Shown here: piece by piece, positions 3,155-51,281 of the stretch
How the letters are laid out: each line of letters starts with the position of its first letter
Position numbering within the stretch: position 1 is the first letter of the stretch
Source: a virus
Virus record (IMG/VR): IMGVR_UViG_3300009431_000016
Strand: one strand, 5' to 3'
DNA length: 64,000 bases
Notes under the pieces: model-generated
What the model saw: only the letters and a program-made list of their open reading frames with translations
Told to the model about the DNA's origin: nothing
Database searches by the model: none
Position numbers and translations under genes: made by a program

Positions 3155-4270
3155 ATGGGTATGTTTCAAAAGGCTGTGCGATACAAAAAGAAGGCTCGCA
3201 TAGCCCTATGTGGTCCCGCCGGAAGCGGCAAGACCTACACCGCCCTTCGGCTGGCTTTTGAGCTGGCCGGATGGAGCAAGGACACTCGCGGTGGGCGGGT
3301 CGTCTTGGTCGACACCGAGCACGGGTCCGGCAGCCTGTACGCTGGTGAGGACCCGGACGGGTTTCCGTGGCAGTACGACACGTGTGTGTTACAACACTTT
3401 GCACCAACAGCGTACACTGGCGTGTTAGGTGCCATTAACGCAGAGGGCTATGACGTTGCGATCGTAGACTCCCTGTCGCACGCTTGGGAAGGCGTTGGCG
3501 GCGCCCTGGACCAGGTCGACAAGAAAGCCGCAACGGCTGTCGGTGGATCGTGGGGCGCTTGGCGAGATGTTACGCCACAGCACCGAATGCTCGTCGAGTC
3601 TCTACTTAGCTGTAAGGTGCACCTGCTCGTTACGATGCGCACTAAAGTGGAGTATGAGACACAGGAGACCATAAAAAACGGCAAGAAGAAGTTGGCCGTT
3701 CAGAAGATTGGCACGAAGCCGATACAACGTGAGGGCCTCGACTACGAGTTTGACGTTGTGTGCGACATGGACACAGAACACTTGCTGAAGGTCGGCAAGA
3801 CTCGATGTAAGCATTTGGACGGTGTGACGTCCGTCAAGCCTGGACCAGAGCTCGTTGCGGTCTACGTCAAGTGGCTCAACTCCGGAGAGGTCGCCCCGGA
3901 AATTCGGCCGGTTACACCTATTGAGGCGGCAGAGAATACTGTCCGCGATGAAGGGGTAAAGCGGGAAGCTGAGGCGACTGTAGGCGCGGATCAGCCGCCA
4001 CAAGGAAGTGGCGGCCGCGGGCGACAGCTGTCGAGCGAGCCGAATGATGCGGCTACGTCATCCGAGCAGGGGCCCAATGATCCGTGTGGCATTGTCGTGG
4101 GTGGCGACATCATCGCATGTTGCAAAGATCTCGATTGGACAGTCGACAAGATCAAGGCGCTATTTACTAAGCTCGAAGTCTCAAAGGCTTCCGAGATTCC
4201 ACATAGACATGCCGGACGCCTGCTTGCTACGCTGCGGACGAAGGTTTCGGAGAAGCAGTTCCCTTCTTAA
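3155..4270 (+). CDS. RecA-fold Walker ATPase, Sak4-like phage recombination ATPase
   Basis: Walker A ALCGPAGSGKTYTAL; hhhhD Walker B (VVLVDTE); RBS GGAGGCGAG 5 nt upstream of ATG 3155; followed by a DUF669-like gene as in Sak4 modules. Confidence 0.55.
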   Translation: MGMFQKAVRYKKKARIALCGPAGSGKTYTALRLAFELAGWSKDTRGGRVVLVDTEHGSGSLYAGEDPDGFPWQYDTCVLQHFAPTAYTGVLGAINAEGYDVAIVDSLSHAWEGVGGALDQVDKKAATAVGGSWGAWRDVTPQHRMLVESLLSCKVHLLVTMRTKVEYETQETIKNGKKKLAVQKIGTKPIQREGLDYEFDVVCDMDTEHLLKVGKTRCKHLDGVTSVKPGPELVAVYVKWLNSGEVAPEIRPVTPIEAAENTVRDEGVKREAEATVGADQPPQGSGGRGRQLSSEPNDAATSSEQGPNDPCGIVVGGDIIACCKDLDWTVDKIKALFTKLEVSKASEIPHRHAGRLLATLRTKVSEKQFPS

Positions 4271-5115: not shown

Positions 5116-7413
5116 ATGACACGCAAACTCGTCGAGATCATCGCCGCCTTTCGGTGGGAGAAGATCCGATTCGACAAAGACGTACAAGAAGACGAGGAGT
5201 CTACTGCCCTCCTGGAGTGCGACCTTCAGCAAGACGGTCTATTCGACCAGAATGTCATCGTGAAGGTAATGTGCATGCCGGACGATTTTGCCGTAGGCCT
5301 GAATTACCGGTTCTACGGCAGCTGGCACACACACGAGAAGTACGGCAAACAGTTCCACGCCAAAACATTCGTCATTGCCCAACCACACGGCGAGGCCGGG
5401 ATCGTCCGATATCTAATCCGGGCCCCACACATCGGCCAGGTGGCCGCCAGGAAGCTATACCAGCAATTCCAAGGCGACGCGGTCCGGATCGCACGAGAAC
5501 AGCCTGACGTTGCCGCCGTGGCTGTAGGCGGCTCATTCAACCTGGAGAGGGCTCAAATTGCCTCTTCTTATTTTGAGCAGGAAAAGGCCACAGAGGAAAC
5601 AACAATCGACATGATTGAGCTCCTGGGCGGCCGCGGGTTTCCGAAAGATCTAGGGCGGCGACTCGTTGCTGAATGGGGGAATCGGGCTCCTGAGCTGATT
5701 CGCCGGAATCCATATCTCTTGATGAAATTCCGATCATGCGGATTTCTACGCACTCACCAAATGTACCTAGACCTTGGCGGCGATCCCGCGAGACTGAAAT
5801 GCCAAACGCTCTGTGGGTGGTATGCGGCCGCCAGAGACACGACAGGGCACACGTGGCACACATCCAGGACGATTGAGGCGGGCATGCGAGAAATGATCGC
5901 AGGGACGCACGTGCGGCCCCTGGACGCGGTTCTGCTGGGCATTCGGTCTGGGCTGCTCAGCAAGTGGCGGGATCGGAATGGCAAGCTGTGGCTGGCGGAG
6001 GGCGGTAAGGCCAGGAAGGAAGAGATTGTCGCCGCGCGCGTCAGGCAGTGGATTAGTGACGATGCCGAGTGGCCGGACGATTATAAACTTAATGTCAGCG
6101 ATCATCAGGGCGAAAAGCTTTTGGAGGCACTGGAATCGCCCATCTCGATCCTTTCGGGCGGCCCGGGAACCGGGAAGACCTACTCCGCCGCCAGGATGAT
6201 CGCCGCCGCCATACAGAGCGGCCGTGGTCAGGCCTGTGCATGTGCGCCAACCGGCAAGGCCGCGGTTCGGCTGACCGAGCTCCTGGACGGCTACGAAATC
6301 CCCCTGAAGGCCAAGACGATCCATTCGACCCTCCGGGTGGCCTCGCATAGCGAAGGCGCCGGCTGGGCATTCGAACATCATGACGAAAATCCGCTACCGT
6401 ACAAATGGGTCTTCGTGGACGAGGCGTCGATGCTCGACACGAATCTGGCGTCGTCCCTCTTTCAGGCCTGCCCCACCGGCTCGCACATCATGCTGATCGG
6501 GGACACCGGTCAGCTCCCGCCCGTAGGACACGGGGCACCGCTGCGCGACCTGACCGCTGCCGGCGTCCCCCATGGAACGCTCACGGAGATCCGCCGCAAC
6601 TCTGGTCGGATTGTGAGGGCGTGCCATCAGATCCTGGTCGGCGAGCAGTTCTCTATAAGTCAGTCGTTTAATCCTGATCGGGGCGAAAACCTCGCTTTAC
6701 TGGCCTCCAGCGATCCGAGCCGGTCTCACAAGAAGATCGTCGAGACAATAAGCAAAATTGGCTCACGCGGTATAGCGGACCCCGTGTGGGGCGTCCAAGT
6801 GATCTGTGCTGTCAACGCCAAATCGCAGCTCAGCCGTGAGGTCCTGAATAAACAGCTCCAGAGCGAATTAAATCCTACCGGCCGGAAGGTCCCCGGCAAT
6901 CCGTTTCGCCAAGGCGACAAGATCGTCTGCTTGAAGAATGGCCTGTATCCAGTAGTGCCAGAGGCGCCGTCCGGCTATAATACAGACCGGGTTGACGGAA
7001 AGGTTTCGGTCGCCAACGGCGAGCAAGGATTGGTCAAAGTCGTTGAGCTGCGCAGAACGATCGTTCAGCTGTCCGCACCAGACCGGCTGATTATTGTCCC
7101 ACGAGGCACCGAGAGTCAGGGCGACGGAGATAATTCGGATAAGTCCGGTGACTCTGGGTGTCAGTGGGACCTCGCATACGCCATCAGCTGTCACAAGTCA
7201 CAGGGCAGTGAGTGGCCCGTTGTTATCGTGGTGCTCGACGAGTATCCGGGCTCCAAGATGGTTTGCAGTCGAGAATGGCTGTATACCGCAGTCAGCAGAG
7301 CAAAGGGAGCGTGTTTCTTAGTCGGCCGTCTCTCGACCGCCTACGACATGATCGATCGGCAGGCGATCTATCATCGCAAGACGTTTCTCAAAGAGCTTAT
7401 CTCCAATGACTAA
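5116..7413 (+). CDS. RecD-like SF1 DNA helicase
   Basis: Walker A GGPGTGKT, Walker B VFVDEASML, motif III LIGDTGQLPPVG, C-terminal YAISCHKSQGSEWPVVIVVL (RecD/TraA family motifs). Confidence 0.85.
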   Translation: MTRKLVEIIAAFRWEKIRFDKDVQEDEESTALLECDLQQDGLFDQNVIVKVMCMPDDFAVGLNYRFYGSWHTHEKYGKQFHAKTFVIAQPHGEAGIVRYLIRAPHIGQVAARKLYQQFQGDAVRIAREQPDVAAVAVGGSFNLERAQIASSYFEQEKATEETTIDMIELLGGRGFPKDLGRRLVAEWGNRAPELIRRNPYLLMKFRSCGFLRTHQMYLDLGGDPARLKCQTLCGWYAAARDTTGHTWHTSRTIEAGMREMIAGTHVRPLDAVLLGIRSGLLSKWRDRNGKLWLAEGGKARKEEIVAARVRQWISDDAEWPDDYKLNVSDHQGEKLLEALESPISILSGGPGTGKTYSAARMIAAAIQSGRGQACACAPTGKAAVRLTELLDGYEIPLKAKTIHSTLRVASHSEGAGWAFEHHDENPLPYKWVFVDEASMLDTNLASSLFQACPTGSHIMLIGDTGQLPPVGHGAPLRDLTAAGVPHGTLTEIRRNSGRIVRACHQILVGEQFSISQSFNPDRGENLALLASSDPSRSHKKIVETISKIGSRGIADPVWGVQVICAVNAKSQLSREVLNKQLQSELNPTGRKVPGNPFRQGDKIVCLKNGLYPVVPEAPSGYNTDRVDGKVSVANGEQGLVKVVELRRTIVQLSAPDRLIIVPRGTESQGDGDNSDKSGDSGCQWDLAYAISCHKSQGSEWPVVIVVLDEYPGSKMVCSREWLYTAVSRAKGACFLVGRLSTAYDMIDRQAIYHRKTFLKELISND

Positions 7414-7771
7414 GCGAACCAAACACGTAAAGACGGAACCAGAAGTCTGCCAAATGGCAGGAGACTTCTACTGTTCGAAGGATTCACCTGTCGGCAAACA
7501 GCTGACCGTTGATCACCTGCAGGACCAGCTCGATCGGCTACGTTCTCATGTCGCAGGCCTGAAGACACTCGTATTAGCCTTATCGGCTCGCGTTGACATG
7601 ATGGGCGGAGTTGTTGAGGTTGACCCGCGGAAGATCCGGGCAGACGGTCGGCCGATCGAGCGCGACAAAGACAAAAAACTGGACATCTACACGTCAGGCT
7701 CGATCTTCGCCAGCGCCATGTCGGGCACACACGTCCGCAACCCCGAGTGCACGCCATACTCCAATGACTAA
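7406..7771 (+). CDS. hypothetical protein; its first 15 codons duplicate the start of the downstream nuclease gene
   Basis: 121-aa ORF whose 5' end lies in a 51-bp direct repeat; diverges afterwards. Confidence 0.3.
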   Translation: MTKRTKHVKTEPEVCQMAGDFYCSKDSPVGKQLTVDHLQDQLDRLRSHVAGLKTLVLALSARVDMMGGVVEVDPRKIRADGRPIERDKDKKLDIYTSGSIFASAMSGTHVRNPECTPYSND

Positions 7772-8273
7772 GCGAACCAAACACGTAAAGACGGAACCAG
7801 AAGTCTGCCCGTTTGTCATCCAAGTCGACCAGCGGGAGAAGGCGCCATATCGCTTTGAGGGCATCGAAAAAGACGATCAGGAGATCGTCGTTCCAACCGA
7901 ATCGGTTCACATCAAAACGGGAGACTACACGATACGCGGATTGAGTGACAAGATTGCGATCGAGCGAAAGAGTCTTGTCGACTTATACGGATCAGTCGGT
8001 CGCAATCGAGATAGGTTCTGCGCTGAGCACGAGCGGCTCGCTCAGTTTGAGCGGGCCGCTGTTGTTATTGAGGCGTCGTGGTACACAATCATGCACTGGC
8101 CGCCTGACATGTCAAAGCTGTCTCCGCGGGTGGTGTGGCGTACACACGCAAGTTGGTTCACTCGTTTCGGCGTTCCATGGTTCACGCTAGAGGACCGGCG
8201 CCTCAGCGAGCTGTTTACGTTTCAACTCTTAGATAGGTTTTGGAGACATGACAATGGTGCGAGAGCTGAATAG
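7764..8273 (+). CDS. ERCC4/XPF-Mus81-type nuclease (possible junction resolvase or flap nuclease)
   Basis: signature VDQRE ... GDYTIRG ... IAIERKSLVDLYGS matching the ERCC4 VDxRE / GDY / ERKx3DLxxS motifs. Confidence 0.55.
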   Translation: MTKRTKHVKTEPEVCPFVIQVDQREKAPYRFEGIEKDDQEIVVPTESVHIKTGDYTIRGLSDKIAIERKSLVDLYGSVGRNRDRFCAEHERLAQFERAAVVIEASWYTIMHWPPDMSKLSPRVVWRTHASWFTRFGVPWFTLEDRRLSELFTFQLLDRFWRHDNGARAE

Positions 8274-9060
8274 CGATGATCTTCCAGACGAGGCAGCAGA
8301 AATATCACGGGAGGATATGCTGGATAACGACAACTTTGATGACCTGGAAGGCGATCTTGAAGAGATGCTAGCAGAGGAAACGGACCAAGAGGAGGCCGAG
8401 CTAATAGCCAAGTCGGACGGTCCGGTTGTCGATGCCAGTGGCCCTGAGGAATCACCGCCAAACGAGCCAAAAGAATTGGAAGAGCCGGAAAAGCCGTCGC
8501 CCGCCGAGGTAAATCCGTTGCAAGCGGACATCCTTCGGCAGATTCGCGACGCCGAAAACCGGTGTCAAAACGCTGAGCTGGCCGTCTTGAACGCCAAGCT
8601 CGAATTGAAGGATGAAAAGGCTGAGTTTGCTGGAGCGGTTACGGCTCTCCGGAGTCTGATTAAGAGCCTGACGAACGACAATACTCGTCCGCTAATCAAG
8701 GTCTTTGATGTGGCCGAACAAAATGGCGATAGTAAAAAGCAGACTGATCCGGGGAAAGAACAGACCGACGAAGCTGATCCGGAACTGCTTGCCGAAGAGG
8801 CCGAATTCGATGAGCTCCTGATGGAGGACCTGGCTGTACTTGGCCTTTCAGATGCCACGTTTGGCAAGCTAGTTGAATGTGGAGTCGAGACAATCGGAGG
8901 GCTCGAAGAGTTGCGGAAGGATATCAGCAAAGGCAAGGCAAGGTGGCCAAAAGGTATTGGACGGGTCACCGTGACGAAGATCGAAGAAGCTGTTATTGAG
9001 TGGCTCGCAAACTTGGAGATTTCCGGCGATGCCGATACGGAAGACAAAGAAGAAAAGTAA
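8248..9060 (+). CDS. acidic protein with C-terminal helix-hairpin-helix-like segment
   Basis: N-terminal 100 aa about 40% D/E; coiled-coil; LGLSDATFGKLVECGVETIGGLEEL. Confidence 0.35.
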   Translation: MTMVRELNSDDLPDEAAEISREDMLDNDNFDDLEGDLEEMLAEETDQEEAELIAKSDGPVVDASGPEESPPNEPKELEEPEKPSPAEVNPLQADILRQIRDAENRCQNAELAVLNAKLELKDEKAEFAGAVTALRSLIKSLTNDNTRPLIKVFDVAEQNGDSKKQTDPGKEQTDEADPELLAEEAEFDELLMEDLAVLGLSDATFGKLVECGVETIGGLEELRKDISKGKARWPKGIGRVTVTKIEEAVIEWLANLEISGDADTEDKEEK

Positions 9061-11599
9061 GGGCCTTGATAAGGCCGAAGTGAAGCGTGCTGCGGAAGGG
9101 CGCTGGCCGGAAATCCTTGAATGCATAGCGGGGATTCCGGCCGGTTGTCTAACCGGCAAACACGGGCCCTGCCCAAAATGCGGCGGCAAGGATCGTTTCC
9201 GGTTCATCGATGAGGAGAAGGGCGCCGTACTATGTAACGCGTGCTTCTCATGTCGAAACGGTGACGGACTTGCAGCCATCCAGTGGATGAAGAATCGACC
9301 GCCGACTAACTTTAAAAAAACAGTCTACGAGGTGGCCGAGTATCTCGGCCTCAATATTGGTGACGCTAGGCGACCGATCGATGCGGATGAACAGTTGGCA
9401 TTCCGAAAGTGGGACGACATTTTTACGCTTCGATGGTGCGAAGCCAAACAGCCAGTCAAACCGGAGTCTATTCAGAAGATTGGTGGCCAGCAGGCTATCT
9501 ACATGTCACGCTACCGCGTCTTCGCGATACCGATCTGGGGCACACATCTCGATGAGGCTGGACCTGTTGGCTGGATCGTCATGAGTTGTAATCCGTCTCA
9601 CGGTTTACCAAAACGTGGGCAGGACGGAAAGATCGAGTTCATTACCAAGCCGAAGTTGACGGCTGGGTCATCGCCGGGCCTGATCGGTGACATGAAGACA
9701 TTGCGATCAGAGGCAACAACAACTGTTTGGAAGCTCGAAGGTATTACCGACCTGCTGGCCTGGTACTCAATGCCGGATCGCCCGGAAGGCCACGTGGCGG
9801 TCACCAACTCAAACGGATGTATGCAGCGGCCGTCAAAGTGGATGGTCGACGCGATACAGGGTGACACCTCGACGCGATCCATCTACGTGATCCATGACGC
9901 CGACCTTCCAGGCCAACGCGGGGCGACAGGCTGGACTGAACACGGGCAACACCGTAACGGATGGGCGGAAGAACTGGCCACAAAAGAGAGACCGGCCGTC
10001 AATGTAGTCCTACCGTTCGTGGTGCACGACACTAATGGCCAAGATTTCCGCGATTGGTGTATGGACTATGGGACATTCACCGACCTTCGGGCAATGGCGG
10101 AAGTATCGCCCGAGATCTTGATATCCAGGATAGTAGCCAATGAACTACCAGACGATCCGTTCCGACTCGCACGACTGAATCTCGATCAGTACGAAGCTAA
10201 GACTGGCGGCCGCACCATCAAATACTGGATGGACAGCTGGTGGGTCTGGAAGCGACAGAGGTACGTCGAGATCGGGCGCCACGAGTTGCGGGCTAAGTTG
10301 ACGATGTCCATCAAGGAAGAGTTCGACCGGCTGAATATGCAGGAGATGGAGGCGTACGAGAAGCGACGCGCAGCCGGCGAGGCGGATGACGAGACGTCAC
10401 CGACAGCACGCAAGATCAGCGTACAGACAGTGTTAAACGTTGAAGCCGCCACCCGCGGCCTGACATACCTGCCTGGGAGCTGCGCACTGGGAACGTGGAT
10501 CCCAACGCGGGAGCGGCGCCCGTACGTATCACTCCGCAACGGGATCCTGGACGTCGATAAAGCTTTGCGATCCGAAGTGGGCTATCTGCTCGAACATTCG
10601 CCGGACTGGTTCTCTACGAGCCACCTCGACTTCGACTTCAAACCCGAAGCTACTTGCACGACCTGGCTGGAGTTTCTCGAATACAACCTTGATGCGGACT
10701 GGCAGATGATCCGCTTCCTACAGGAGTGGGTCGGCTACCTCTTGCTGCCAGACACCCGCGAGCAGTCGTTCTTGATCCTGCACGGCGAGGGCGGCAACGG
10801 CAAGACGGTGTTCTGCGCAGGGGTCGAAGCACTGCTCGGGACCGACAACTGCTCGTCGGTTCCGCTGGAGTCGTTCGGAGATCGGTTTTCGAAGACCGGC
10901 ACGCTTGGGCGCCTCGTGAACATTTGCGGCGACGTGGGCGAACTCGACGCAGTGGCCGAGGGAACGATCAAGGCGTTCACCGGGGGCAATAAGGTCTCGT
11001 TCGACCGGAAAGGCATACCGGCGGTCGAGGCACACCCCACCGCGAGGTTGATGATAGCCTGCAATAATCTCCCGCGGATCCGCGACCGGTCCGAGGGCAT
11101 CTGGCGCCGCATGCTCATCTCGCCGTGGGAGAAGTCGGTTCCGCCGGATAAGCGAGTCAAGGGCATGGACAGCCCGGACTGGTGGATCCGTACGGGGGAG
11201 CTGTCCGGGATGTTCAATTGGGCCCTTGTCGGCTTGCATCGCCTCCGCGAGAAGGGCGCCTTCTCTGAGGTGGCCACGATGAGCGAGGCCCGCCGCGAGT
11301 ACCAGGACACCAGCAACTCCGCCCGGCTTTTTCTGAGGGAACACACCGACAAGACGTCAGGTGTCAATCTCAAGTGCTCGCACCTCTTTCGTACCTACGC
11401 CGCGTGGTGCAAAGAGAATGGATTCTCGTCATTCTCGTCGGTTAATTTCTACCGCGAAGTGCACCGCTATCACACCGGAATCGACACCCGGCGCATCGGG
11501 CCGCGGGGGCAGCAGCAGAAATTTTATGTAGATCTTGACTACATTTCCCTTGACACGTCAGATGAGGAGTTGGCTGGTGCTTACACCTCAAACTTCTAA
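8996..11599 (+). CDS. zinc-finger primase fused to SF3 helicase (P4 alpha / D5-like replicative primase-helicase)
   Basis: CPKCGGKDRFRFIDEEKGAVLCNAC zinc ribbon; central primase-like region; C-terminal Walker A LILHGEGGNGKTVF typical of P4/D5 C-terminal helicase; start may instead be Met at 9029. Confidence 0.75.
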   Translation: MSGSQTWRFPAMPIRKTKKKSKGLDKAEVKRAAEGRWPEILECIAGIPAGCLTGKHGPCPKCGGKDRFRFIDEEKGAVLCNACFSCRNGDGLAAIQWMKNRPPTNFKKTVYEVAEYLGLNIGDARRPIDADEQLAFRKWDDIFTLRWCEAKQPVKPESIQKIGGQQAIYMSRYRVFAIPIWGTHLDEAGPVGWIVMSCNPSHGLPKRGQDGKIEFITKPKLTAGSSPGLIGDMKTLRSEATTTVWKLEGITDLLAWYSMPDRPEGHVAVTNSNGCMQRPSKWMVDAIQGDTSTRSIYVIHDADLPGQRGATGWTEHGQHRNGWAEELATKERPAVNVVLPFVVHDTNGQDFRDWCMDYGTFTDLRAMAEVSPEILISRIVANELPDDPFRLARLNLDQYEAKTGGRTIKYWMDSWWVWKRQRYVEIGRHELRAKLTMSIKEEFDRLNMQEMEAYEKRRAAGEADDETSPTARKISVQTVLNVEAATRGLTYLPGSCALGTWIPTRERRPYVSLRNGILDVDKALRSEVGYLLEHSPDWFSTSHLDFDFKPEATCTTWLEFLEYNLDADWQMIRFLQEWVGYLLLPDTREQSFLILHGEGGNGKTVFCAGVEALLGTDNCSSVPLESFGDRFSKTGTLGRLVNICGDVGELDAVAEGTIKAFTGGNKVSFDRKGIPAVEAHPTARLMIACNNLPRIRDRSEGIWRRMLISPWEKSVPPDKRVKGMDSPDWWIRTGELSGMFNWALVGLHRLREKGAFSEVATMSEARREYQDTSNSARLFLREHTDKTSGVNLKCSHLFRTYAAWCKENGFSSFSSVNFYREVHRYHTGIDTRRIGPRGQQQKFYVDLDYISLDTSDEELAGAYTSNF

Positions 11600-12857: not shown

Positions 12858-13459
12858 CATTTTCTCTTCAGAAAGGCAAGACAATGGAGATCGTGTGGGG
12901 AATCGCAACCGTTTTGTTTTGTTCGGCAGCAGCATTTGCCGGGTACTCGGTTGGAATGTATCTCGGTAAAACAGAGGTCTGGAAGGAGGCCGAAGTGAAA
13001 GGGTTTGGCCGATGGAAGGTTGGGACGGACAACATTCTTGCGTTCTATTGGTTTTGGGTCCGTTCGAATGACAACGTTGTAGTGGACGACCTCGAAGAGA
13101 CGACACAACCGACGTCAATCAAGAAGGCACCGACACCTCCGGTTGGTGAAATTCGCAAGGTATGTGATGAAGTCAAGAAGGTTGCAGGTGCCATTCGACA
13201 AACCAAAGAAGAGGTCGAATGGAGGGCTTTCAAGAACGCCTTTCCGTACGACATCGATCAGCTCGATAAAGACGAACTCATCATGATGACTCGCATCCAG
13301 AACCGCATTCGTTCCCAGCAAGGCAAGCCGCAACTCGTAATTCCAACACTGGAACTTCTCGGCGACTTTAAAGTAGCGTCCATGCCGAGCACACCATCGA
13401 CCTCTGACAGCGAGGCGCCGCGAATCATTACGCGCGCCCTTCCAAACGCTAGAGGCTGA
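12854..13459 (+). CDS. membrane-anchored hypothetical protein
   Basis: N-terminal transmembrane segment IVWGIATVLFCSAAAFAGYSVGMYL; true start possibly Met at 12884. Confidence 0.3.
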   Translation: MTFSLQKGKTMEIVWGIATVLFCSAAAFAGYSVGMYLGKTEVWKEAEVKGFGRWKVGTDNILAFYWFWVRSNDNVVVDDLEETTQPTSIKKAPTPPVGEIRKVCDEVKKVAGAIRQTKEEVEWRAFKNAFPYDIDQLDKDELIMMTRIQNRIRSQQGKPQLVIPTLELLGDFKVASMPSTPSTSDSEAPRIITRALPNARG

Positions 13460-14498: not shown

Positions 14499-15036
14499 GA
14501 GAGAGCAATTCAAAGGCGGTACTGTGCGAGATACAGCAGAAGGAAAACCGAGGCCAGACCTAGCGTCTCCATTTGCAGAAAAGCGAATTGGAGAATGGTT
14601 CAGGCTTGGCGCAGAGAAGTACGCAGCCAGAAACTGGGAGACCGGGATGCCGATCTCACGAGTCTGGGCATCACTGCGCAGACACGTACTCGACTGGCAG
14701 TCCGGAGACCGTTCCGAAGATCACCTCGCAGCTATTGCATGGAACGCCGAGGCGATCATGCACTATGAGGAGATGATCGTCCGCGGGCGACTTCCGGAAG
14801 AGCTGGCAGACATGCCGGACTACAAAGTCGCCGAGAAGTTCCAGTGTTTCAAGTTCCGTGCCCCGGCGGTCGAATCGGAGGAGTCTATCAACGAGAAGAT
14901 GCGGGAGGCCTCAGACTGTCTCACGTGCATGTACGACGGGGAGTGCGATGGGAATGTCTGTCAGTGTCCTCCGGAGGGCGCCCAACAGCGAGGCTACGAT
15001 CCCATCGATATCACTGAACCCAATTCCGGAGAATAA
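14482..15036 (+). CDS. protein with dATP/dGTP diphosphohydrolase N-terminal-like domain
   Basis: GKPRPDL...GAEKYAARNWETG...SRVWASLRRHVLDWQSGDRSEDHLAAIAWNA matches the conserved KPRxDL / GA.KY..NW / RH..W / ED.HLAA pattern; GTG start at 14482 after GGAGG. Confidence 0.5.
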   Translation: MHDSGKREQFKGGTVRDTAEGKPRPDLASPFAEKRIGEWFRLGAEKYAARNWETGMPISRVWASLRRHVLDWQSGDRSEDHLAAIAWNAEAIMHYEEMIVRGRLPEELADMPDYKVAEKFQCFKFRAPAVESEESINEKMREASDCLTCMYDGECDGNVCQCPPEGAQQRGYDPIDITEPNSGE

Positions 15037-37403: not shown

Positions 37404-37415
37404 TGATTGGAGAAA

Positions 37416-40400
37416 ATGATGGACGATTTCCCGCCACGCAATGTTGGTGTCAGCGAACGCGTTATCAATTTAGCTGACCTTAATAAGTACCCTGCTACAG
37501 TTGTCAACGAGCAGACCAAGGATCCAGCGCACGGGGTCGACGGCGCCCCGCCGAATTTCGCTAGACCAATGGTTCCGCACATCCATACGGTGCAGGGTCG
37601 CGTTGGGACTATCTCTCGCGTCTATCGTCCCTCTGACGAAGCCCTCCGTCACTCGTATCACAACGCTCGTTATATGCGCAACGAGTGCGGCATCATGGAA
37701 TGCCTCGAAGGTCGGCAACGCGGGTCGATTTTACTGAAGTGGCATCTTGAGCCAGAAGACGAAAAGTCAACCGACCAGCAAGCCCTGGTACAACAGCTAA
37801 CTGACATCATTGACCGCATCCCGGACTTCACGGAGTATCGCAGAAATCTCCTCGAGGCCCTGTGGTTTGGAAAATATGCAACCGCACATAATTGGGGCTG
37901 GGACTGGGTGAAGGGCCGCCGGCGGAAAGTCATTAAGACGTGGGAACCGCGACATGGCGATAAGATCGTTTTCCGTTACGACGATGGCCGTCACAATTAC
38001 GACCCGCGTCAGATCGGCATCCGGATTGGTGCCGATTATCAATGGGACGTGCACCACAAAAACTTTCTCGGTGAACCGCACAAAAAGGTCGAGGCTACCG
38101 ACCAAGGTCTTGCGTATTTCCTCAATCAGTGGGAGCGAGACTTCCTCATTGCCATACATAAACACATCATAGAAGACGGTGCCTATGAAGACCCGGAACA
38201 GGCTGGTAGCATTCATGGCATCGGCATCAGGTCGCGCATTTATTGGACGTGGTATCAAATGTCTGAGTGCACGGCATGGCTGATGGAATATCTCGAACGC
38301 ACAAGTTTTGGCGTTGAGCTGTGGCCGTACAAAGCTGGCAACCCGACCAGCGAACAGAAGACGCGCGAAGCCGCGCAAAAGCGAATCGGCGGCGGCCGGT
38401 CGATCGTCTTGGTGCCCATTCAGGAAGGTGAGGATCCGGCGTTGTGGCAAGTTCAGCACTTGGAACCTGGTCTGGCTGGTGCGGATGCCGTGAAAGACGT
38501 CATACAATCGTTCTTCCTGCAAAGAATCAAGCGATACATACTCGGGCAAACCCTCACGAGCGAAGCAGAGGCTACTGGGCTCGGCTCTGGTGTTGCGGAC
38601 GCTCACCTCGCGACTTACATGGATATCGTGCGATACGACGCCCGTAAACTCGAAGAAACCCTCACGACGGACCTGGTACGACCTTTGCAGCTGCAAAACT
38701 TCCCAGCATCGCACAGTATTCGGATCAAGTTCAAAATCGACACGGAAGCTGACAACGCGTCCGAAATGCTCGAAGCTTACGAGCGAGCGTGGGCGATGGG
38801 GTTGCGGATCAAGGCTGATGACGTGGCGAGTATGATTGGCGCCGCGAAGCCCGATACCGACGACGAGACACTTCGTAACCCGCGGCTCGAACAGGCCGAA
38901 CAACAGCAGGCAATGCTGGAACAGCAGCAAGCGATGGGTCTGGGGGCCGGTCCGGGGCAACCGGGGCAACCAGGACAACCCGGCCAGCCAAACGGCTTGC
39001 CCACGCAGGTCCCCGGCTGGACTCCACCCAGCAGTGACAATGAAGACGTGGAAGAATTTGATGATCCAGAAGGCCCGGATGGAGGAAAGAATGTCAATCT
39101 GATCCCTGAGTTTCGTCCTGGCGGGCCGTTTGATGATGAGGAAGAGCGGCACGCCAAACAGTGGGACGAGAGTAAACACCCGCGTGCTGCAGACGGGAAA
39201 TTCGGACACGGCGAAGGCGCCATTGCTCCCGGTGTAGCAGAAAAGTTGGCTCTCGCAGAGGCAAATGAGGAGGGCGTGCAGTACGCCCAGCTTGGCTTCA
39301 ACTTCAAAGAGGAAGACCATCCACGCGACGCTTCCGGGAAATTCACTGAAGGTGCCGGAGAGAAGAAAAAGCCCGCGGCCGCCGAAGCCGACAAGCCCTT
39401 CGAACTGAAGAATAAAGCCCCCTGGAAGAAAGCCGAATTTACGCCAGAGAAAAAGAAACAGGGGCAGCTCCTGGCCGGGTTGGACCTGTCGCCTGGACAG
39501 ACTGATTTTCTGGAGGAACGGCCCGAGTTGGCCGCGGAGACGCATCCAAACCCCAAGCCTGAGCTTGCGGCAGAGACACACCCAGAGAGCAGCGGGGACG
39601 CGTCAGCTAAAGACTGGGCTGACAAGATCATGCCGGCGGGCAAGTTCATTGACGAAGATGGTAACGAGCGAGGCGGAGACTGGTTTTGGGACGTGGTTGG
39701 CGAGATGTCCGACGAACAGCTCCAGGAAGCCCTAGAGCACGTTCGCGAGAACGGTACGCCACAACAGCAGAGGTGGCTTGTTCCGCCAATCAAGAGTGAG
39801 CTCGGCAAGCGAGCCAAGGGTGAGCCAAAGGAACCGCCGGCCGCCGCCGCGAAGCAAGCAAAAGCCGTGAAGGAACCGTGGGAGATGACTGGATATGAGT
39901 ATGCAACTCAGCATTCTGGGAGAATGAGGGAGTTGCGGGAAGCAAAACCGAGACCGATCGATAAATTATACGGAAAGAATGGCCCCACGCCCGAACAGGC
40001 AGCCGAACACAAGCAATTGATGAAAAGATGGAATCGTGCTTATCGTGCTGCATCTAAGGCGCATAAGGCATACCTGGAAGATCAAGGGAAACATCAGCGA
40101 CTTGTTAAACAGGCCATCGACGACGGCAAACCTGTCCCGGCTAAGGTTCTCGAAGGCTACCCAAGCCTCGCTTCTGATAAGGAACGAGAACGCCATACCA
40201 TGCAAAACGACCAGTCTCTCGGCGCACTCTTCCGCGAGTGCTATCGCAATATGTCCTCTCCTGGCCAGCAGTCAATCATGGGAAAGGGCGGAACCGGAAG
40301 CCGATCAGCCAAGACTCAACAGGGACTGAAGTGGATCACGATCGGAGGTTCTCCGGGCGAAGGCGGCGAGCACGAGGGCGGCACACCGGTCAAAATAGAC

Positions 40401-42887
40401 GAGAAGGGCCGAATACATGGCGGGTCCGAGGCATTGACCGGAGAGACGTTGGGGAAGATTGACAAGGACAAGGTTGGCGACAAGGGTGGCGGGAAGGCTG
40501 GCGGCGGGAAGCCAGAGAAGGTGTCGGAGGGTGGCGGCCCTGCAATGAAAGACATAGCTCCTGGGCACGAAAAGAAGATCCAAGATGCCTTGGCCGCCAT
40601 CGCTGAGCATGACCCGCAATTACTGGCCGGCCTCAAGCAGATTCAGGGCGGTACGCTGCCTCCAGGATTGAAGGCCAATGCGGTCGCAAGTACATCGTCT
40701 GGTACGATTTGGCTGCCTGACGGAAAAGCACCAGAAGAGCATTCAACTCTGGTTCACGAGCTAACGCATTTAAGGCAAGCAGCGGAAGGCAAAATTCCAG
40801 AAGGCGGTCGAGATGTAATGGAGCCAGACGCTTACAATCAACTCGAAATGGAGGCACGCCGCGCAGCCGCAAAGTACCAAGAACACGTTGATGAGAAACG
40901 GATCATGGACTATCTGAGTAAGTCTCAGGGAAAAGTCGGCCTGCGCGACCTTCGTACCGCCCTGGGCCATCCAAAGGTCGATCCTCAGGACCCGCTGTCA
41001 AACCAGATTCATAAAGCACTGGCCGGACTGCGGGACGCCGGTCGGGTTCAGGCTCACGAACCGGAACGCGGGGAGCCTAGCTTTTCGGCGAAGCCGGCTC
41101 AGCGGGCGGCCGCGGAAGGCAGTGAGGAGTCGGCTCCCTCCGCTTCTCCGCCATCGACTCCCACTGAGGCCTCCGTGAAAGCCCAGCCAACCCTAAAGGA
41201 ACCCACAGCCGTATCGATACAGGGACACGATATGGACGTAGGCCAGTCCCGGGGAATGTGGTTTTTCCGGAGGTCATCTGCAGCTGGTTGGGTTGGGGCC
41301 AGTCCTGGCCTGTCTGCAGCCATTGAGCAACAGCTCGGAGGCGGACAGGAAGAGCCTACAGAAACCCCTAAGGAGCGCGGTCGCGCGTCAGCAAAACAGT
41401 CACTAGACGAGGCTGTAGCCAGTGCTGTGGGTGACTCGCCGGAAGATCAGGCCGGATTCAGGACCGTCGTCGATGAGGTATGGAAACGGCGAAACAGAGA
41501 GGCGGCGGCCGAAAATAGCTCACTCAGGAACTTGCTTGGCAATTTCGGATACGATGGCGCCAGACAGGGAGCACTAATACGGACCATACAAAAGACAGAG
41601 GACCCAGACCAGCTGACAAAAGGCAAGTCTGGGCTGAGGAAGCAGTGGGATCAAATCGTGGAATACGCGATTGCACACCACCCAGATCTCTTGGAATGGG
41701 GTGGTGGCGAGTTTATCGGGAAAGACGATGCCGAATACGCACTATTCAACCGCCTAAAAAAGGGGCTGGTGAAGGCCCCGCCGCGACATGACCCGGAAGT
41801 AATCCAGGAGGCCCTGGACTACACGGAGACGGCGTCCGGCGGCGAGTTCGGAGAAGGTGAGGGCGATCTAAGTGGCCCGTGGGATGAATCACTGGCCGCA
41901 CAGTCTGAGTCGTTTTCGGCTGGGATGTGGGAGCGAGCTGTAATTTACGCGAGGCGAGGCAATGCTGAGCAATATAAACAATTGACGACATTTGTGGAAA
42001 GCGAACACCCGCGAAATGCAGATGGGGAATTTACAGATAAGGCCCGTGGACCTACAATGAAAACAGTGATTCGCAGTGGCAAATCATTTGTCATGGGTGA
42101 CGGATCGCCGCTTCCTACGTACATTCCGCGAATCCCTCCAGCATGGACAAAAGTATCGGTTGCAACCTCGCCGGATGCCCCTCTCTTGGTGACTGGGATT
42201 GATGCGAAAGGGCGAAAACAAAGCATCTATTCTACCTCTCATGCCATGCGGGCTGCTGCAGCGAAATTTGCGAAGATATCAGAATTGGTTGCGAAACGCA
42301 ATGAAGTTATAAATGAAATGCGAGAAGCTACGTCTCGCGGGAATACGGAGGCAGAGGTCGCCCTGCTGATCAACGAAACGGGCTTGCGCCCTGGCTCTGG
42401 GCGGGACACAAAGGCTGAGAAACAGGCATATGGTGCGACAACGCTTCTGGGGCGTCATGTTGTCGTGACCGATAGTGGCGTAAGACTGGTTTTTACAGGC
42501 AAGAAGGGCGTGGCTATTGACGTGGCAGTCACCAATCCTGCTATTTCGTCCATGTTGGCCAAACGCAAGCTGACAGTTGGCGAGCATGGCAGGCTGTTTG
42601 ACACCAATGATCAGAAATTGCGGGCGTATGTGGCCACTCTTGATGGTGGAAAATTCAAGCCCAAAGACTTCCGTACTCTTGTCGGAACGACTCTTGCATC
42701 AGATTCAGTGCGGGAGAGGGTGCCAGCCAAAAATGATAAAGAATACAAGAAGCAAGTGCGTGAAATCGCACAGCACGTAGCGGCAAAGCTGGGCAATACA
42801 CCGACCGTGGCGCTGCAGTCGTATATTGATCCGACGGTTTTTAGTCGATTGCGGCCAATTTCACATGAGGAATCAGGTAATGAATGA
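37416..42887 (+). CDS. giant multidomain virion protein: portal-like N-terminal region, 3x EHPR-x-DGKF motifs, HExxH motif, C-terminal type IB topoisomerase domain
   Basis: 1820-plus aa. QQQAMLEQQQAM-GQPGQPGQPGQP linker at about aa 500. EHPRAADGKF, DHPRDASGKF and EHPRNADGEF motifs. LVHELTHL HExxH. C-terminal LRPGSGRD / GATTLLGRHV / FTGKKG / KDFRT / ALQSYIDP aligns to topoisomerase IB catalytic motifs, with the active-site Tyr in SYIDP. ORF track starts at TTG 37407; ATG 37416 preferred. Confidence 0.7.
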   Translation: MMDDFPPRNVGVSERVINLADLNKYPATVVNEQTKDPAHGVDGAPPNFARPMVPHIHTVQGRVGTISRVYRPSDEALRHSYHNARYMRNECGIMECLEGRQRGSILLKWHLEPEDEKSTDQQALVQQLTDIIDRIPDFTEYRRNLLEALWFGKYATAHNWGWDWVKGRRRKVIKTWEPRHGDKIVFRYDDGRHNYDPRQIGIRIGADYQWDVHHKNFLGEPHKKVEATDQGLAYFLNQWERDFLIAIHKHIIEDGAYEDPEQAGSIHGIGIRSRIYWTWYQMSECTAWLMEYLERTSFGVELWPYKAGNPTSEQKTREAAQKRIGGGRSIVLVPIQEGEDPALWQVQHLEPGLAGADAVKDVIQSFFLQRIKRYILGQTLTSEAEATGLGSGVADAHLATYMDIVRYDARKLEETLTTDLVRPLQLQNFPASHSIRIKFKIDTEADNASEMLEAYERAWAMGLRIKADDVASMIGAAKPDTDDETLRNPRLEQAEQQQAMLEQQQAMGLGAGPGQPGQPGQPGQPNGLPTQVPGWTPPSSDNEDVEEFDDPEGPDGGKNVNLIPEFRPGGPFDDEEERHAKQWDESKHPRAADGKFGHGEGAIAPGVAEKLALAEANEEGVQYAQLGFNFKEEDHPRDASGKFTEGAGEKKKPAAAEADKPFELKNKAPWKKAEFTPEKKKQGQLLAGLDLSPGQTDFLEERPELAAETHPNPKPELAAETHPESSGDASAKDWADKIMPAGKFIDEDGNERGGDWFWDVVGEMSDEQLQEALEHVRENGTPQQQRWLVPPIKSELGKRAKGEPKEPPAAAAKQAKAVKEPWEMTGYEYATQHSGRMRELREAKPRPIDKLYGKNGPTPEQAAEHKQLMKRWNRAYRAASKAHKAYLEDQGKHQRLVKQAIDDGKPVPAKVLEGYPSLASDKERERHTMQNDQSLGALFRECYRNMSSPGQQSIMGKGGTGSRSAKTQQGLKWITIGGSPGEGGEHEGGTPVKIDEKGRIHGGSEALTGETLGKIDKDKVGDKGGGKAGGGKPEKVSEGGGPAMKDIAPGHEKKIQDALAAIAEHDPQLLAGLKQIQGGTLPPGLKANAVASTSSGTIWLPDGKAPEEHSTLVHELTHLRQAAEGKIPEGGRDVMEPDAYNQLEMEARRAAAKYQEHVDEKRIMDYLSKSQGKVGLRDLRTALGHPKVDPQDPLSNQIHKALAGLRDAGRVQAHEPERGEPSFSAKPAQRAAAEGSEESAPSASPPSTPTEASVKAQPTLKEPTAVSIQGHDMDVGQSRGMWFFRRSSAAGWVGASPGLSAAIEQQLGGGQEEPTETPKERGRASAKQSLDEAVASAVGDSPEDQAGFRTVVDEVWKRRNREAAAENSSLRNLLGNFGYDGARQGALIRTIQKTEDPDQLTKGKSGLRKQWDQIVEYAIAHHPDLLEWGGGEFIGKDDAEYALFNRLKKGLVKAPPRHDPEVIQEALDYTETASGGEFGEGEGDLSGPWDESLAAQSESFSAGMWERAVIYARRGNAEQYKQLTTFVESEHPRNADGEFTDKARGPTMKTVIRSGKSFVMGDGSPLPTYIPRIPPAWTKVSVATSPDAPLLVTGIDAKGRKQSIYSTSHAMRAAAAKFAKISELVAKRNEVINEMREATSRGNTEAEVALLINETGLRPGSGRDTKAEKQAYGATTLLGRHVVVTDSGVRLVFTGKKGVAIDVAVTNPAISSMLAKRKLTVGEHGRLFDTNDQKLRAYVATLDGGKFKPKDFRTLVGTTLASDSVRERVPAKNDKEYKKQVREIAQHVAAKLGNTPTVALQSYIDPTVFSRLRPISHEESGNE

Positions 42888-43086
42888 TCCGCATAATGCT
42901 GGTGCAGACATCTTTTTTGTTGGCAAAGACGAGATTGATTGGCGAGAAGAAGAAGAAACGGAGGACCCAGATGATTTACAGGTTGAAACGCCAGTAGATG
43001 TGACTCTTGTTCTTGGATTTGATCCAACAACGTGTGAGGATGTCGGCTGCGGCGGGAAACCCGAAAGTTTGGCGAACGAGCTGTAA
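42876..43086 (+). CDS. small acidic protein
   Basis: 70-aa ORF (EEEETEDPDD) overlapping the giant-gene stop; ends inside the second copy of the 32-bp repeat. Confidence 0.25.
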
Positions 43087-43104
43087 TTTACGCGAGGCGA
43101 GGCA

Positions 43105-43725
43105 ATGCCGATACCGGATCCGCCGTTTGATCGCCAGCAGATACTGGCGATGGGAATGGAAGACTGGCAGGACGGGTGCGTCAAGTACGCGGTAGATGTT
43201 GATGCATGTTGGGAAGACAACGTGCGGCGCGCCGAAATGCTCGGCCTGATGGCCACGCAACAGCATTACGTCCTAGACCTTGGTGCCGGCTTCGGATTCT
43301 TTGGGGCGGCTACAGGCCTCAAAGATCATGTGGTGTTCTCGCTCGATTGCGATCGGCCAATCATTCGCCGCGCGGCAGAGATCATTGGAGGCCGCCGCAT
43401 CTGGGGCAAAATCGAAGACGCCATCTCTGGCAACCTTTGGCCGGACGCGCCAATCTCGCTTGTCACAATGTGGCAGGTCATCTCAGGCGACGTGTGGAAC
43501 ATTGGCTTACTCACGTCTAGCATTGCGGCAGTCCTGTTGAGGCTCCCGAATGACGGCCGGTTCGTAATCGGTTGGAACGAAACGCCCGCCGACTGTGACC
43601 TGCATCGCAGCACGTCATACGTCATGGGGCAGCTGGCCAAAATCTTTGCGGTGGAGAACCATGAAGGCTTGGCCATGAAGACCGGAACTTACAAAATGTC
43701 CATCATTCGCAGGCAAAGGAATTAG
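43105..43725 (+). CDS. class I SAM-dependent methyltransferase
   Basis: motif I VLDLGAGFGFFG; start codon is embedded in the 32-bp junction repeat. Confidence 0.45.
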   Translation: MPIPDPPFDRQQILAMGMEDWQDGCVKYAVDVDACWEDNVRRAEMLGLMATQQHYVLDLGAGFGFFGAATGLKDHVVFSLDCDRPIIRRAAEIIGGRRIWGKIEDAISGNLWPDAPISLVTMWQVISGDVWNIGLLTSSIAAVLLRLPNDGRFVIGWNETPADCDLHRSTSYVMGQLAKIFAVENHEGLAMKTGTYKMSIIRRQRN

Positions 43726-45313: not shown

Positions 45314-45356
45314 AACGCGATAGCCGCGTCACCCACAACCCGAAAGGCCAAGCGAA

Positions 45357-45413
45357 GGGCCATTTCCTCTAGACCCGCAACCGCGGGTCTAGAGAAAATG
45401 GCCTTTTTTTATT
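45357..45413 (+). terminator. rho-independent terminator
   Basis: about 21-bp GC-rich stem GGGCCATTTCCTCTAGACCCGC / GCGGGTCTAGAGAAAATGGCC (one mismatch) followed by TTTTTTTATT. Confidence 0.7.
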
Positions 45414-49709: not shown

Positions 49710-50144
49710 ATGTTTTGGCAGCGAAAGAAGAAGAGGTGGATCTTCACGTACTTTGACGGACTCTGCACGAGATCTGTGGATCCAATGGTTGCCTTTCGGA
49801 CACTGCGAGATGACAAAGAGTTCCGTGCAGAAGTGCATCCGCATCTCGTGGACGTTGGCGATGAGGAGGCCGTCCAAGTCACCCTGCGTGCTATACGGCG
49901 CACTTTTGGCGTTACAGCCTATGCAGACGATCTGGCGGGAGGGCTCACGGAACTTGAAACACTGGAACTTCTCGGCGACTTTTATGAATTCATCGATTCC
50001 GTAAAAAAAAACACCAGGCCTTCGCAGACGCCATCTGCCTCTACGGAGCCGATCTTGTCGCCCTTGAACGAGATGAGCCCGAGCGATACGGCGCCTTGCT
50101 CTTGCTCCAGCCAAGAGAAGAGCTTCGAGCAGCCAACAGAATAA
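49710..50144 (+). CDS. hypothetical structural protein
   Basis: 144-aa ORF. Confidence 0.25.
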   Translation: MFWQRKKKRWIFTYFDGLCTRSVDPMVAFRTLRDDKEFRAEVHPHLVDVGDEEAVQVTLRAIRRTFGVTAYADDLAGGLTELETLELLGDFYEFIDSVKKNTRPSQTPSASTEPILSPLNEMSPSDTAPCSCSSQEKSFEQPTE

Positions 50145-50309: not shown

Positions 50310-51281
50310 ATGGCCGGTACGCTGCTCGCATCTATAGCTGGAACTCTCGCCTCCCTGCTGGCCCGCCTCGGCTTGGGCGCTGCCGCGTCTCAAGCCGGGG
50401 CGGCCAGTGGTGCTTCTGTGGGCGGAGCCAAGGCAGTTGGACTCGGCGGGCGGGCCGCGGCGGCCGCCGAGTCCCGCCGCGTTATAGCCGCGGCGGCCGC
50501 CGAGTCCCGCCGCCAAGCCGCCGCCAGTGGTGCTACTGTGGGCGGAGCCAGGACAGTTGGACTCGGCGGGCAGGCCGCGGCGGCCGCCGAGTCCCAGGCG
50601 AGCTTACTTCAGAAGTTTGGCAAGATGGGGGCCATTGCCGATCAAGTCTCTAGTACGGGGGTAAAGGCGAGACAACAACAACAACACGAGGACGCACTAA
50701 AGGAAGCCAAAGCCCAGGCGTTAAAGACAACCAAGCGACTCACGTTCGGCATTCTTGGCATGTCTCTTGCCATGATTGGACTGCCAAAGGCCATCCAGAA
50801 AGTAACCGAGCGACTAACTGAGAAAGCCAGGGCCCTGGAACAGTTCGGCGGGGCCATCGCGATCGCATCGCAGAACCTTGAGGCTCAGCGCCTCGCTCGC
50901 CACGTTCATTTGGCCAGTATGACCGGGGCGTCTTCGACACGGTTGATGAGGAGTCAGAACGATCTTGAGAAAGCGATGTTGCCATACAAGGTAATGTCCA
51001 CAAATGTGCTCAACGATATAGCCGCCGCCGCCAATAGGGCTACCGCGTTCGCTGTCTCAAACGCTAGAGCTATCAGCGCCAAGTTTGACCTGTTAATGCG
51101 TCTTCTGGAACTGTGGTATGGCGAAGCAAACCCCATGGCCGTCCCATGGGTCAACTTCATCAATGATTTGTCGAATGGTGACGTCGGTAGAGTCAGTGTT
51201 CGCGAGCGAATGATGGAGGAGAGGCGAGCGGCCGAGGCAGCGGCCAGAGAGCGGCGCCGGCAAGGCCGCGTGGCTCCATAA
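50310..51281 (+). CDS. Ala-rich repeat protein with central TM segment
   Basis: internal 120-bp tandem repeat; hydrophobic LTFGILGMSLAMIGLP; coiled-coil C-terminus. Confidence 0.3.
   Translation: MAGTLLASIAGTLASLLARLGLGAAASQAGAASGASVGGAKAVGLGGRAAAAAESRRVIAAAAAESRRQAAASGATVGGARTVGLGGQAAAAAESQASLLQKFGKMGAIADQVSSTGVKARQQQQHEDALKEAKAQALKTTKRLTFGILGMSLAMIGLPKAIQKVTERLTEKARALEQFGGAIAIASQNLEAQRLARHVHLASMTGASSTRLMRSQNDLEKAMLPYKVMSTNVLNDIAAAANRATAFAVSNARAISAKFDLLMRLLELWYGEANPMAVPWVNFINDLSNGDVGRVSVRERMMEERRAAEAAARERRRQGRVAP

Follow-up and report, generated by a model that had tools for sequence, protein, structure and literature searches.

How new genes, and especially ORFans, enter packed and translationally coupled operons is poorly understood, and the joints of mosaic phage genomes are nearly always too old to reveal how they were formed. 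The question is raised again by a locus in the IMG/VR virus record IMGVR_UViG_3300009431_000016, of which one stretch of 64,000 nucleotides, hereafter the window, was analysed. On the + strand of the window, a RecD2-like helicase gene and an ERCC4-type nuclease gene are separated by a small open reading frame (ORF) lying between two identical 51-bp sequences, and the locus still appears to retain the footprint of the event that placed it there. We consider it likely that the locus represents a young gene gain in a phage replication and recombination operon, in which the junction between two neighbouring genes was duplicated and the newcomer would be expressed in coupling with them. The features of the locus are as follows.

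5116 to 7413, + strand: RecD2-like superfamily 1 (SF1) helicase gene, 765 amino acids; its last 13 nt (S, N, D and stop) lie inside repeat copy 1
7401 to 7451, + strand: repeat copy 1, 51 bp, read as native upstream context with the helicase end, the ATGACTAA overlap and the first 15 nuclease codons, which now open the 121-residue ORF
7406 to 7771, + strand: chimeric ORF of 121 amino acids (ORF121), starting in copy 1 and ending ..TPYSND* in copy 2
7452 to 7758, + strand: insert of 307 bp, absent from the closest syntenic relatives and open in one frame
7454 to 7771, + strand: alternative form of the inserted ORF with 105 amino acids, as in the JGI gene calls (protein P0001)
7759 to 7809, + strand: repeat copy 2, 51 bp, read as native downstream context, which gives the inserted ORF its stop and the nuclease its start
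7764 to 8273, + strand: ERCC4/XPF-type nuclease gene, 169 amino acids, starting in copy 2

The 51-mer CTCCAATGACTAAGCGAACCAAACACGTAAAGACGGAACCAGAAGTCTGCC occurs exactly twice in the window, at 7401-7451 and 7759-7809, as a perfect direct repeat. No third copy was found in the window even when three mismatches were allowed, and no such repeat arose in 100 dinucleotide-preserving shuffles. The repeat is real and beyond chance, and these counts and shuffles confirm what the original prediction had reported of it. Its borders are sharp: the adjoining bases differ at both ends of the copies, and no decaying similarity was detected outward from them. The distance between the copies is 358 nt (1 modulo 3), with 307 bp of insert in between. 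The 51 bp consist of the nuclease 5' end (46 nt, 15 codons) and the helicase 3' end (13 nt including the stop), so the duplication claimed earlier for the nuclease start extends to the helicase end as well. Each copy holds the 8-nt stop/start overlap ATGACTAA (ATG at 7406-7408 and TAA at 7411-7413 in copy 1), and not the 4-nt ATGA overlap first described. An interrupted hairpin on the + strand (7436-7476, 15 pairs, loop AAAT at 7452-7455) spans the left joint between repeat and insert, with a predicted RNA minimum free energy of -17.2 kcal/mol (z -3.1, equalled by 1 of 200 shuffles). It was downgraded as a mechanistic clue, since it ranks merely among the top 5% of all 47-nt segments of the genome; it is a weak feature of little weight and may be due to chance.

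The upstream gene product matched Pfam AAA_19 (2e-30), AAA_30, UvrD_C_2, OB_YrrC and HHH_RecD2 as well as PHROG 4412 (9e-88), and its C-terminus, ..KELISND*, is encoded within copy 1. The downstream product matched Pfam ERCC4 (PF02732, 5e-07), PHROG 3490 (1.6e-11) and NCBIfam Hef/Xpf. ORF121 is composed of 15 nuclease-derived residues, Q, 101 residues encoded by the insert, and S-N-D-stop from the helicase end, which bears out the chimeric upstream ORF of the original prediction; the 15 residues MTKRTKHVKTEPEVC, said to be common to ORF121 and the nuclease, do open both translations. Because the spacing of 358 nt equals 1 modulo 3, ORF121 enters in the nuclease frame and exits in the helicase frame. 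The 121-residue form starting at 7406 exists as an ORF, while the JGI gene calls place the start at ATG 7454 and give 105 residues. The predicted layout fits a translationally coupled chain, leading from the helicase to the 121-residue chimera (or the 105 residues from ATG 7454) and on to the nuclease.

Removal of one repeat copy and the insert in silico yields an intact helicase end (..KELISND*) and an intact nuclease start (MTKRTKHVKTEPEVCPFVIQVDQREK..). The reconstructed junction measures 50 nt from the helicase stop to nuclease residue 20, and the corresponding distance in the closest relatives with an empty slot is 33-59 nt. These closest syntenic relatives share about 55-75% amino acid identity with the helicase and 50-56% with the nuclease; in L016, L017, L020, L021, L025, L026, L028 and L102, the two genes overlap or abut at helicase stop and nuclease start, with no intervening sequence. 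Because the deletion restores a junction like theirs, the segment between the repeats is a derived insertion, in support of the earlier reading of 7452-7758 as an insert. The 88 nuclease homologues carry variable N-terminal tails of similar length ahead of a conserved CPF..VD.REK block, with about 7-16 residues before the CPF motif in the relatives. Since variable short tails are normal in this family, the N-terminal tail of the nuclease is a native feature. It follows from the reconstruction and the native tail that copy 2 with its downstream sequence is the native nuclease start and copy 1 with its upstream sequence the native helicase end. Between the conserved end of the helicase (RKTFLKELI) and the conserved start of the nuclease, conservation is lowest in the part that corresponds to the 51 bp. 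The comparison with insert-free relatives proposed earlier yielded these divergent genomes and no genome with a single copy of the same 51-mer: when helicase, nuclease and ORF were looked up by exact match, every contig obtained carried the insert, with no near-identical empty-site genome among them, and a DNA search against GenBank phages gave no match. Because no close empty-site relative was found, the ancestral state rests on parsimony together with the clean reconstruction.

The helicase, the nuclease and the inserted ORF were matched exactly on contigs from JGI samples 3300009320, 3300013120 and 3300009314, which were retrieved (38 kb, 13 kb and 5.9 kb, respectively), and the protein cluster tables list four contigs with these proteins, the longest of 66,481 bp. 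Both copies of the repeat are present on each of the three retrieved contigs, which match the window without a difference over 601 bp (100% identity) and depart from it elsewhere by 2-12 substitutions and one indel. As they differ by single-nucleotide polymorphisms (SNPs), they represent separate assemblies of near-identical strains and not one assembly error. The insert is kept in all four assemblies, which may reflect a useful gene or a recent sweep. As a separate observation, 4234-4311 of L013 contains 42 nt more than the corresponding part of the window (about 2040-2070), in an imperfect GCCGC(T/C)-rich short tandem repeat, a length polymorphism between strains.

Of the three frames on the + strand, the insert is open in a single one, which links ATG 7406 to the duplicated stop. 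Its codon-usage score of 0.159 per codon corresponds to the 65th percentile of 306-nt segments from the long ORFs of the phage, and its guanine-plus-cytosine (GC) fractions by codon position are.63/.42/.68 against.62/.45/.69 in the helicase. Overall GC content is 0.57 for the insert, 0.58 for the helicase and 0.55 for the window, so its composition is not deviant. Given the single open frame and the resident codon usage, the insert is true coding sequence, drawn from a genome of like codon usage, and not junk. It starts 2 nt before the in-frame ATG 7454 and ends after the TA of a TAC codon, the joints being GCC|AAATGG on the left and CCATA|CTCC on the right. These limits would fit a piece that matches one ORF almost exactly, its leading AA being left over from a TAA stop upstream and its final TA from the stop codon of the ORF. 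A consensus scan, which may not suit the presumed host, detected neither a sigma-70-like promoter nor an intrinsic terminator on the + strand between 7400 and 7810. Rfam gave no match in region 7000-8300 at E values up to 1, and no structured RNA or self-splicing element was detected there.

We then compared the inserted ORF with the available sequence collections, as homologues elsewhere had been named as a check on its nature, and a single weak match was obtained across all collections searched. ORF121 had no match in Pfam, PHROG, NCBIfam or PDB, and no homing-endonuclease domain (HNH, GIY-YIG, LAGLIDADG or similar) was present in ORF121 or its 105-residue form. No homologue was found in GenBank phages (tblastn), IMG/VR or GTDB genomes, nor in 5.8 billion protein clusters. 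The sole homologue, P0090, came from an exhaustive phmmer search of 1.84 billion representatives (E 1.4e-5, 28-33% identity). P0090 has 292 amino acids in about 2.5 tandem units of 116 amino acids and belongs to no Pfam family, and a profile built from it and the inserted ORF detected no further homologues. Each unit of P0090 opens with AGDFY, as does the 105-residue form from its residue 2, which hints that ATG 7454 was the native start. The AlphaFold2 model of ORF121 was uninformative, with a mean confidence (pLDDT) of 46 and one helix at residues 35-62. By these comparisons the inserted ORF is an ORFan without a recognised domain. The six-frame ORFs of all 130 fetched loci likewise contained no homologue of it, and by these searches it is not the conserved ancestral gene that the earlier caveat had considered.

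To place the insertion in the phage family, we surveyed 62 related loci in which the nuclease follows a helicase C-terminus on the same strand. The slot between the two genes is empty, with the genes adjacent, in 27 of the 62, and the other 35 have a larger gap of 71-2938 nt. The occupants among relatives L016-L130 include six unrelated ORFans of 107-137 amino acids, an HNH endonuclease (L089, probably also L034), a Dam methylase (L045), and an SNF2 helicase with a methylase (L040, L048), besides others. They are mostly unrelated to one another, and none is related to the present insert; the slot is thus, as judged from these loci, a hypervariable, family-wide insertion hot spot. Where a single small ORF fills the slot in a relative, it overlaps the helicase stop in most cases and the nuclease start in all of them, by 4-16 nt (ATGA/GTGA), and translational coupling therefore seems to be the rule in the slot. 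No junction repeat above chance was found in 33 occupied slots (longest exact match at most 12 nt, null maxima 9-15), so that, at this depth, junction duplication is not seen to be a habit of the family. The insertion at the 51-bp junction is probably recent, since its two copies are identical and these 33 slots of relatives hold no repeat. One borderline case was noted: a 12-nt exact repeat, GCAAATCAGATC, stands at both borders of the 1.46-kb occupant of L060 (1017 and 2368; null maxima 9-10), and it might be a decayed footprint or chance.

Among the long local direct-repeat pairs in the window, only the 51-bp pair and one of 32 bp exceed chance, and the two are unrelated to each other. The second pair is perfect over 32 bp (41934-41965 and 43077-43108; 38 bp with 2 mismatches) and encloses an insert of 1111 bp (41966-43076) with a lower GC content of 50%. 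This insert encodes a full topoisomerase IB (PF01028, 3.4e-17) as an in-frame C-terminal fusion to an 1826-residue Mu-portal ORF (37407-42887), together with an 86-residue ORF that stops inside copy 2; a 206-residue gene (43105-43725) starts at the ATG of copy 2. Deletion between the 32-bp repeats gives a 1526-residue protein whose end overlaps the start of the next gene by 26 nt. Because this overlap is restored, the second case is read as another insertion into an overlapping junction that became duplicated. The two cases lend partial support to a recurrence of junction-duplicating insertion. The original prediction had gone further and suggested a recurrent junction-mediated mechanism; a second junction duplication does exist, and neither case shows the junction sequence as the mediator. 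No CCCTT-like motif was evident by eye at the joints, and an involvement of the topoisomerase IB of the second insert in illegitimate joining is speculation.

We propose that in the ancestor the helicase and nuclease genes overlapped by the 8 nt ATGACTAA, and that a protein-coding segment of 307 bp (about 101 codons, phage-like codon usage) entered their junction. The two joints in the recipient would have been staggered by 51 bp, the left one after nuclease codon 15 and the right one 4 codons before the helicase stop, and because of this stagger the 51 bp are now present on both sides of the insert. No insertion between such overlapping genes would be viable unless at least the 8-nt overlap were duplicated; joints in the reverse order would delete essential sequence and be lost. 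We infer that the duplication acted as a viability filter as well as being a mechanistic footprint, and its size of 51 bp would merely mark where both joints happened to land. The repeat may accordingly be only a by-product, with the junction sequence not driving the insertion. For the joining itself, our tentative choice, which falls just short of being probable, is one illegitimate event, either copy-choice template switching, with a jump from the recipient onto a donor and a return 51 nt behind the point of departure, or the repair of a staggered break.

After such an event, ribosomes ending at TAA 7411-7413 would restart at ATG 7406 within the full ancestral context of the nuclease start and translate the chimera as far as the duplicated TAA 7769-7771, where a second restart, at ATG 7764, would give the nuclease. 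In this way the new gene would join the coupled chain without a promoter or ribosome-binding site of its own, and nuclease coupling would be retained. Recombination between the two 51-bp copies should, in addition, be able to remove the insert precisely.

Several points weigh against a recent gain from outside with coupled expression. The insert is present in 4/4 assemblies, so no polymorphism documents its gain or loss, and no close empty-site relative was found, the nearest sharing about 55-75% (helicase) and 50-56% (nuclease) amino acid identity. The composition of the insert matches the phage and carries no compositional sign of foreign origin. Its donor was not found, so microhomology at the joints is not readable. 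Furthermore, the sigma-70 consensus used for the promoter scan may be unsuited to the presumed host, and the start used (7406 or 7454), the coupling and the expression are predictions from sequence.

Ends-in (Campbell) homologous recombination duplicates the region of homology, and it offers a different route to the same structure. A 358-bp circle or concatemer of repeat and insert, excised earlier from a near-identical genome, would have undergone a single crossover with the resident junction, and the gene would be reversibly mobile in the population. The Sak4-like annealase of the phage, an AAA_24 protein encoded at 3155-4270 near the helicase and the nuclease, could catalyse this reaction together with these two proteins. 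A single crossover through 51 bp of homology gives exactly the observed geometry: the homology is duplicated around the inserted DNA, the copies are perfectly identical and their borders are sharp. However, the donor must already hold the 51-bp target, and no such donor or circle was observed; no empty-site or other-context copy occurs in any collection searched. The first repeat-insert and insert-repeat joints are left unexplained, so an earlier illegitimate event is still required. Moreover, the repeat is confined to two copies in the genome and is not a dispersed motif, and since this part of the junction is less conserved among relatives than any other, different phages do not have it in common as a linker for exchange. 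A mini-circle origin is the main alternative, though we hold it to be unlikely.

The mini-circle route has its closest parallel in the ORFan cassettes of T4-type phages, which are flanked by PeSL elements and form mini-circles (Arbiol et al. 2010, PMC2839356; Comeau et al. 2014, PMC4122927); circles of about 400-800 bp with single ORFans were demonstrated in RB49 and phi1, and their reinsertion was proposed (PMC2839356). As there, a lone small ORFan lies between direct repeats and relatives have one copy and no ORFan, in the sense that relatives of the present phage show a single junction; a single copy of the same 51-mer in a near-identical genome was not found. The sizes are also alike (PeSL210 circles of about 400 bp, 358 bp for repeat plus insert here), and recombination between the repeats would remove the gene precisely and release a circle able to reinsert. 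In contrast, PeSLs are dispersed, multi-copy, intergenic combinations of an early promoter and a stem-loop terminator, whereas the present repeat is unique to its site, where it occurs just twice, is coding in two overlapping genes and shows no promoter- or terminator-like signal. It is predicted to tie genes together by translation, not by transcription.

A bolder extension is that ORFs are regularly loaded in this phage or its family, as cassettes of one ORF plus junction, by mini-circles or template switching, with duplications of 30-50 bp at overlapping stop/start junctions. If so, each new ORF would inherit the initiation region of its neighbour, be expressed at once as an N-terminal chimera and be precisely losable; the two footprints in 64 kb would represent the young stage and the hypervariable slot with its ATGA overlaps the old stage. 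We regard such a regular process as improbable.

Transposition was also considered, since direct repeats of target sequence around an insert are its hallmark. A transposon-like element would need a transposase or integrase making cuts staggered by 51 nt, and the resulting target-site duplication would be very long, as known ones measure about 2-15 bp. The insert, with 307 bp and one small ORF, recalls in size the MPMEs, ultra-small elements of mycobacteriophages, and close to its ends, at 2 and 1 nt, stand the two halves of a 5-bp inverted match (ATGGC/GCCAT). However, a match of this length is within chance and does not amount to convincing terminal inverted repeats. Neither a transposase nor an integrase or nuclease domain was found in the ORF with Pfam, PHROG, NCBIfam or PDB, no other copy of the insert occurs in the genome or the collections searched, and the second case differs in repeat length (32 bp) and in its insert, which is unrelated. 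We give this explanation very little credence.

A further view takes the ORF as an old resident gene whose junctions were later equalised by ectopic gene conversion or held identical by selection. About half of the related phages do carry some gene in the slot, and the codon usage of the insert is fully ameliorated. Nevertheless, conversion requires prior homology between the junctions, and here the borders are sharp without residual flanking similarity. No relative has a homologue of the ORF in its slot, junction similarity was seen in 0 of 33 occupied slots, and the duplicated nuclease tail has no known role in the ORF. An old gene is accordingly most improbable.

All data come from short-read metagenome assemblies, and a graph loop mis-threaded through a 51-bp repeat shared by two molecules could in principle have produced the structure. 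The same structure was nevertheless recovered on four contigs from at least three samples with SNP differences elsewhere; the frames are coherent, with the insert open only from ATG 7406 to the duplicated stop and in resident codon usage; and a chance identity of 51 nt between unrelated molecules is not credible. An assembly artefact is hardly believable on these grounds.

A tandem or inverted local duplication of the helicase 3' end or the nuclease 5' region, followed by divergence, was rejected as practically excluded: it could draw on the 15 N-terminal residues in common with the nuclease and on the hairpin that joins the repeat end to the insert start, but that hairpin is no more than a top-5% feature of the genome, the insert in either orientation aligned to 7000-7451 and 7759-8273 with scores at or below those of shuffled controls, no similarity to the flanks, the rest of the window or the fetched loci was found on either strand (tblastx/blastn, local alignment), there were no protein-level matches, so the insert is not a diverged local duplication, and perfect repeats beside wholly unrelated sequence are incompatible with gradual divergence.

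Morons, in the concept of Hendrix and Juhala, are accessory genes between adjacent phage genes that have their own promoter and terminator and often a deviant composition. The present insert had been likened to them, and the position fits, as it is an extra gene in a variable slot between genes that are adjacent in relatives (27/62 loci). In promoter, terminator and composition the comparison fails: the insert shows no promoter or terminator signal of its own and no deviant composition, it lacks its own stop, and it is fused to duplicated neighbour sequence. A second precedent is the insertion of ORFans into bacterial operons, the mechanism of which 'remains unclear', with the canonical 4-nt overlaps thought to form later by deletion (Price, Arkin & Alm 2006, PMC1480536). 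The new ORFan here likewise lies inside an operon beside native genes, and the ATGA/GTGA overlaps of the older occupants match the later-deletion view, whereas at this locus the footprint of the event is still present.

On present evidence the event is a single, ordinary recombination accident with an unusually well preserved footprint. The empty site can be reconstructed exactly, and the duplicated junction preserves both neighbours and, by inference from the sequence, also gives the newcomer a working initiation context. The locus thus offers a concrete and testable model of operon invasion, in a slot where dozens of related phages carry unrelated genes. It is also a natural construct in which repeat-mediated loss of a gene, termination-reinitiation and chimeric N-termini could be measured.

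The surrounding genes form a phage replication and recombination module, and the source is an uncultivated tailed phage of about 66 kb, with the following further features.

3155 to 4270: Sak4-like AAA_24 protein
8996 to 11599: D5-type primase-helicase
37407 onward: Mu-type portal domain

The best-matching GTDB relatives lie on contigs binned with Planctomycetota metagenome-assembled genomes, and the host is probably a planctomycete. Many related helicase-nuclease modules from GTDB genomes (loci L102-L106, L110, L114, L116, L118 and L127) are on contigs binned as Planctomycetota, among them Pirellulales, Gemmata and Thermoguttaceae, and one is on a 2.3-Mb Gemmataceae scaffold. The latter placement suggests a prophage and, for the phage family, a planctomycete host range.

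Other repeats in the window were recorded in passing. A perfect repeat of 25-37 nt with the core AACACTGGAACTTCTCGGCGACTTT is found at 13345-13369 (+), 14824-14860 (inverted) and 49946-49982 (+), up to 36 kb apart, and at least the first two copies are inside long ORFs. A GC-rich coding repeat at 50400-50600 recurs every 120 nt (76 nt at 93% identity) and has 27-nt repeats nested within it, and another at 58456-59137 comprises three copies of an 82-nt unit at 67-79% identity; both probably encode repeat domains of structural proteins. Finally, a candidate transcription terminator or protein-binding palindrome lies at 45355-45406, in the form of an inverted repeat whose 24-nt arms are 92% complementary and enclose a loop of 4 nt.

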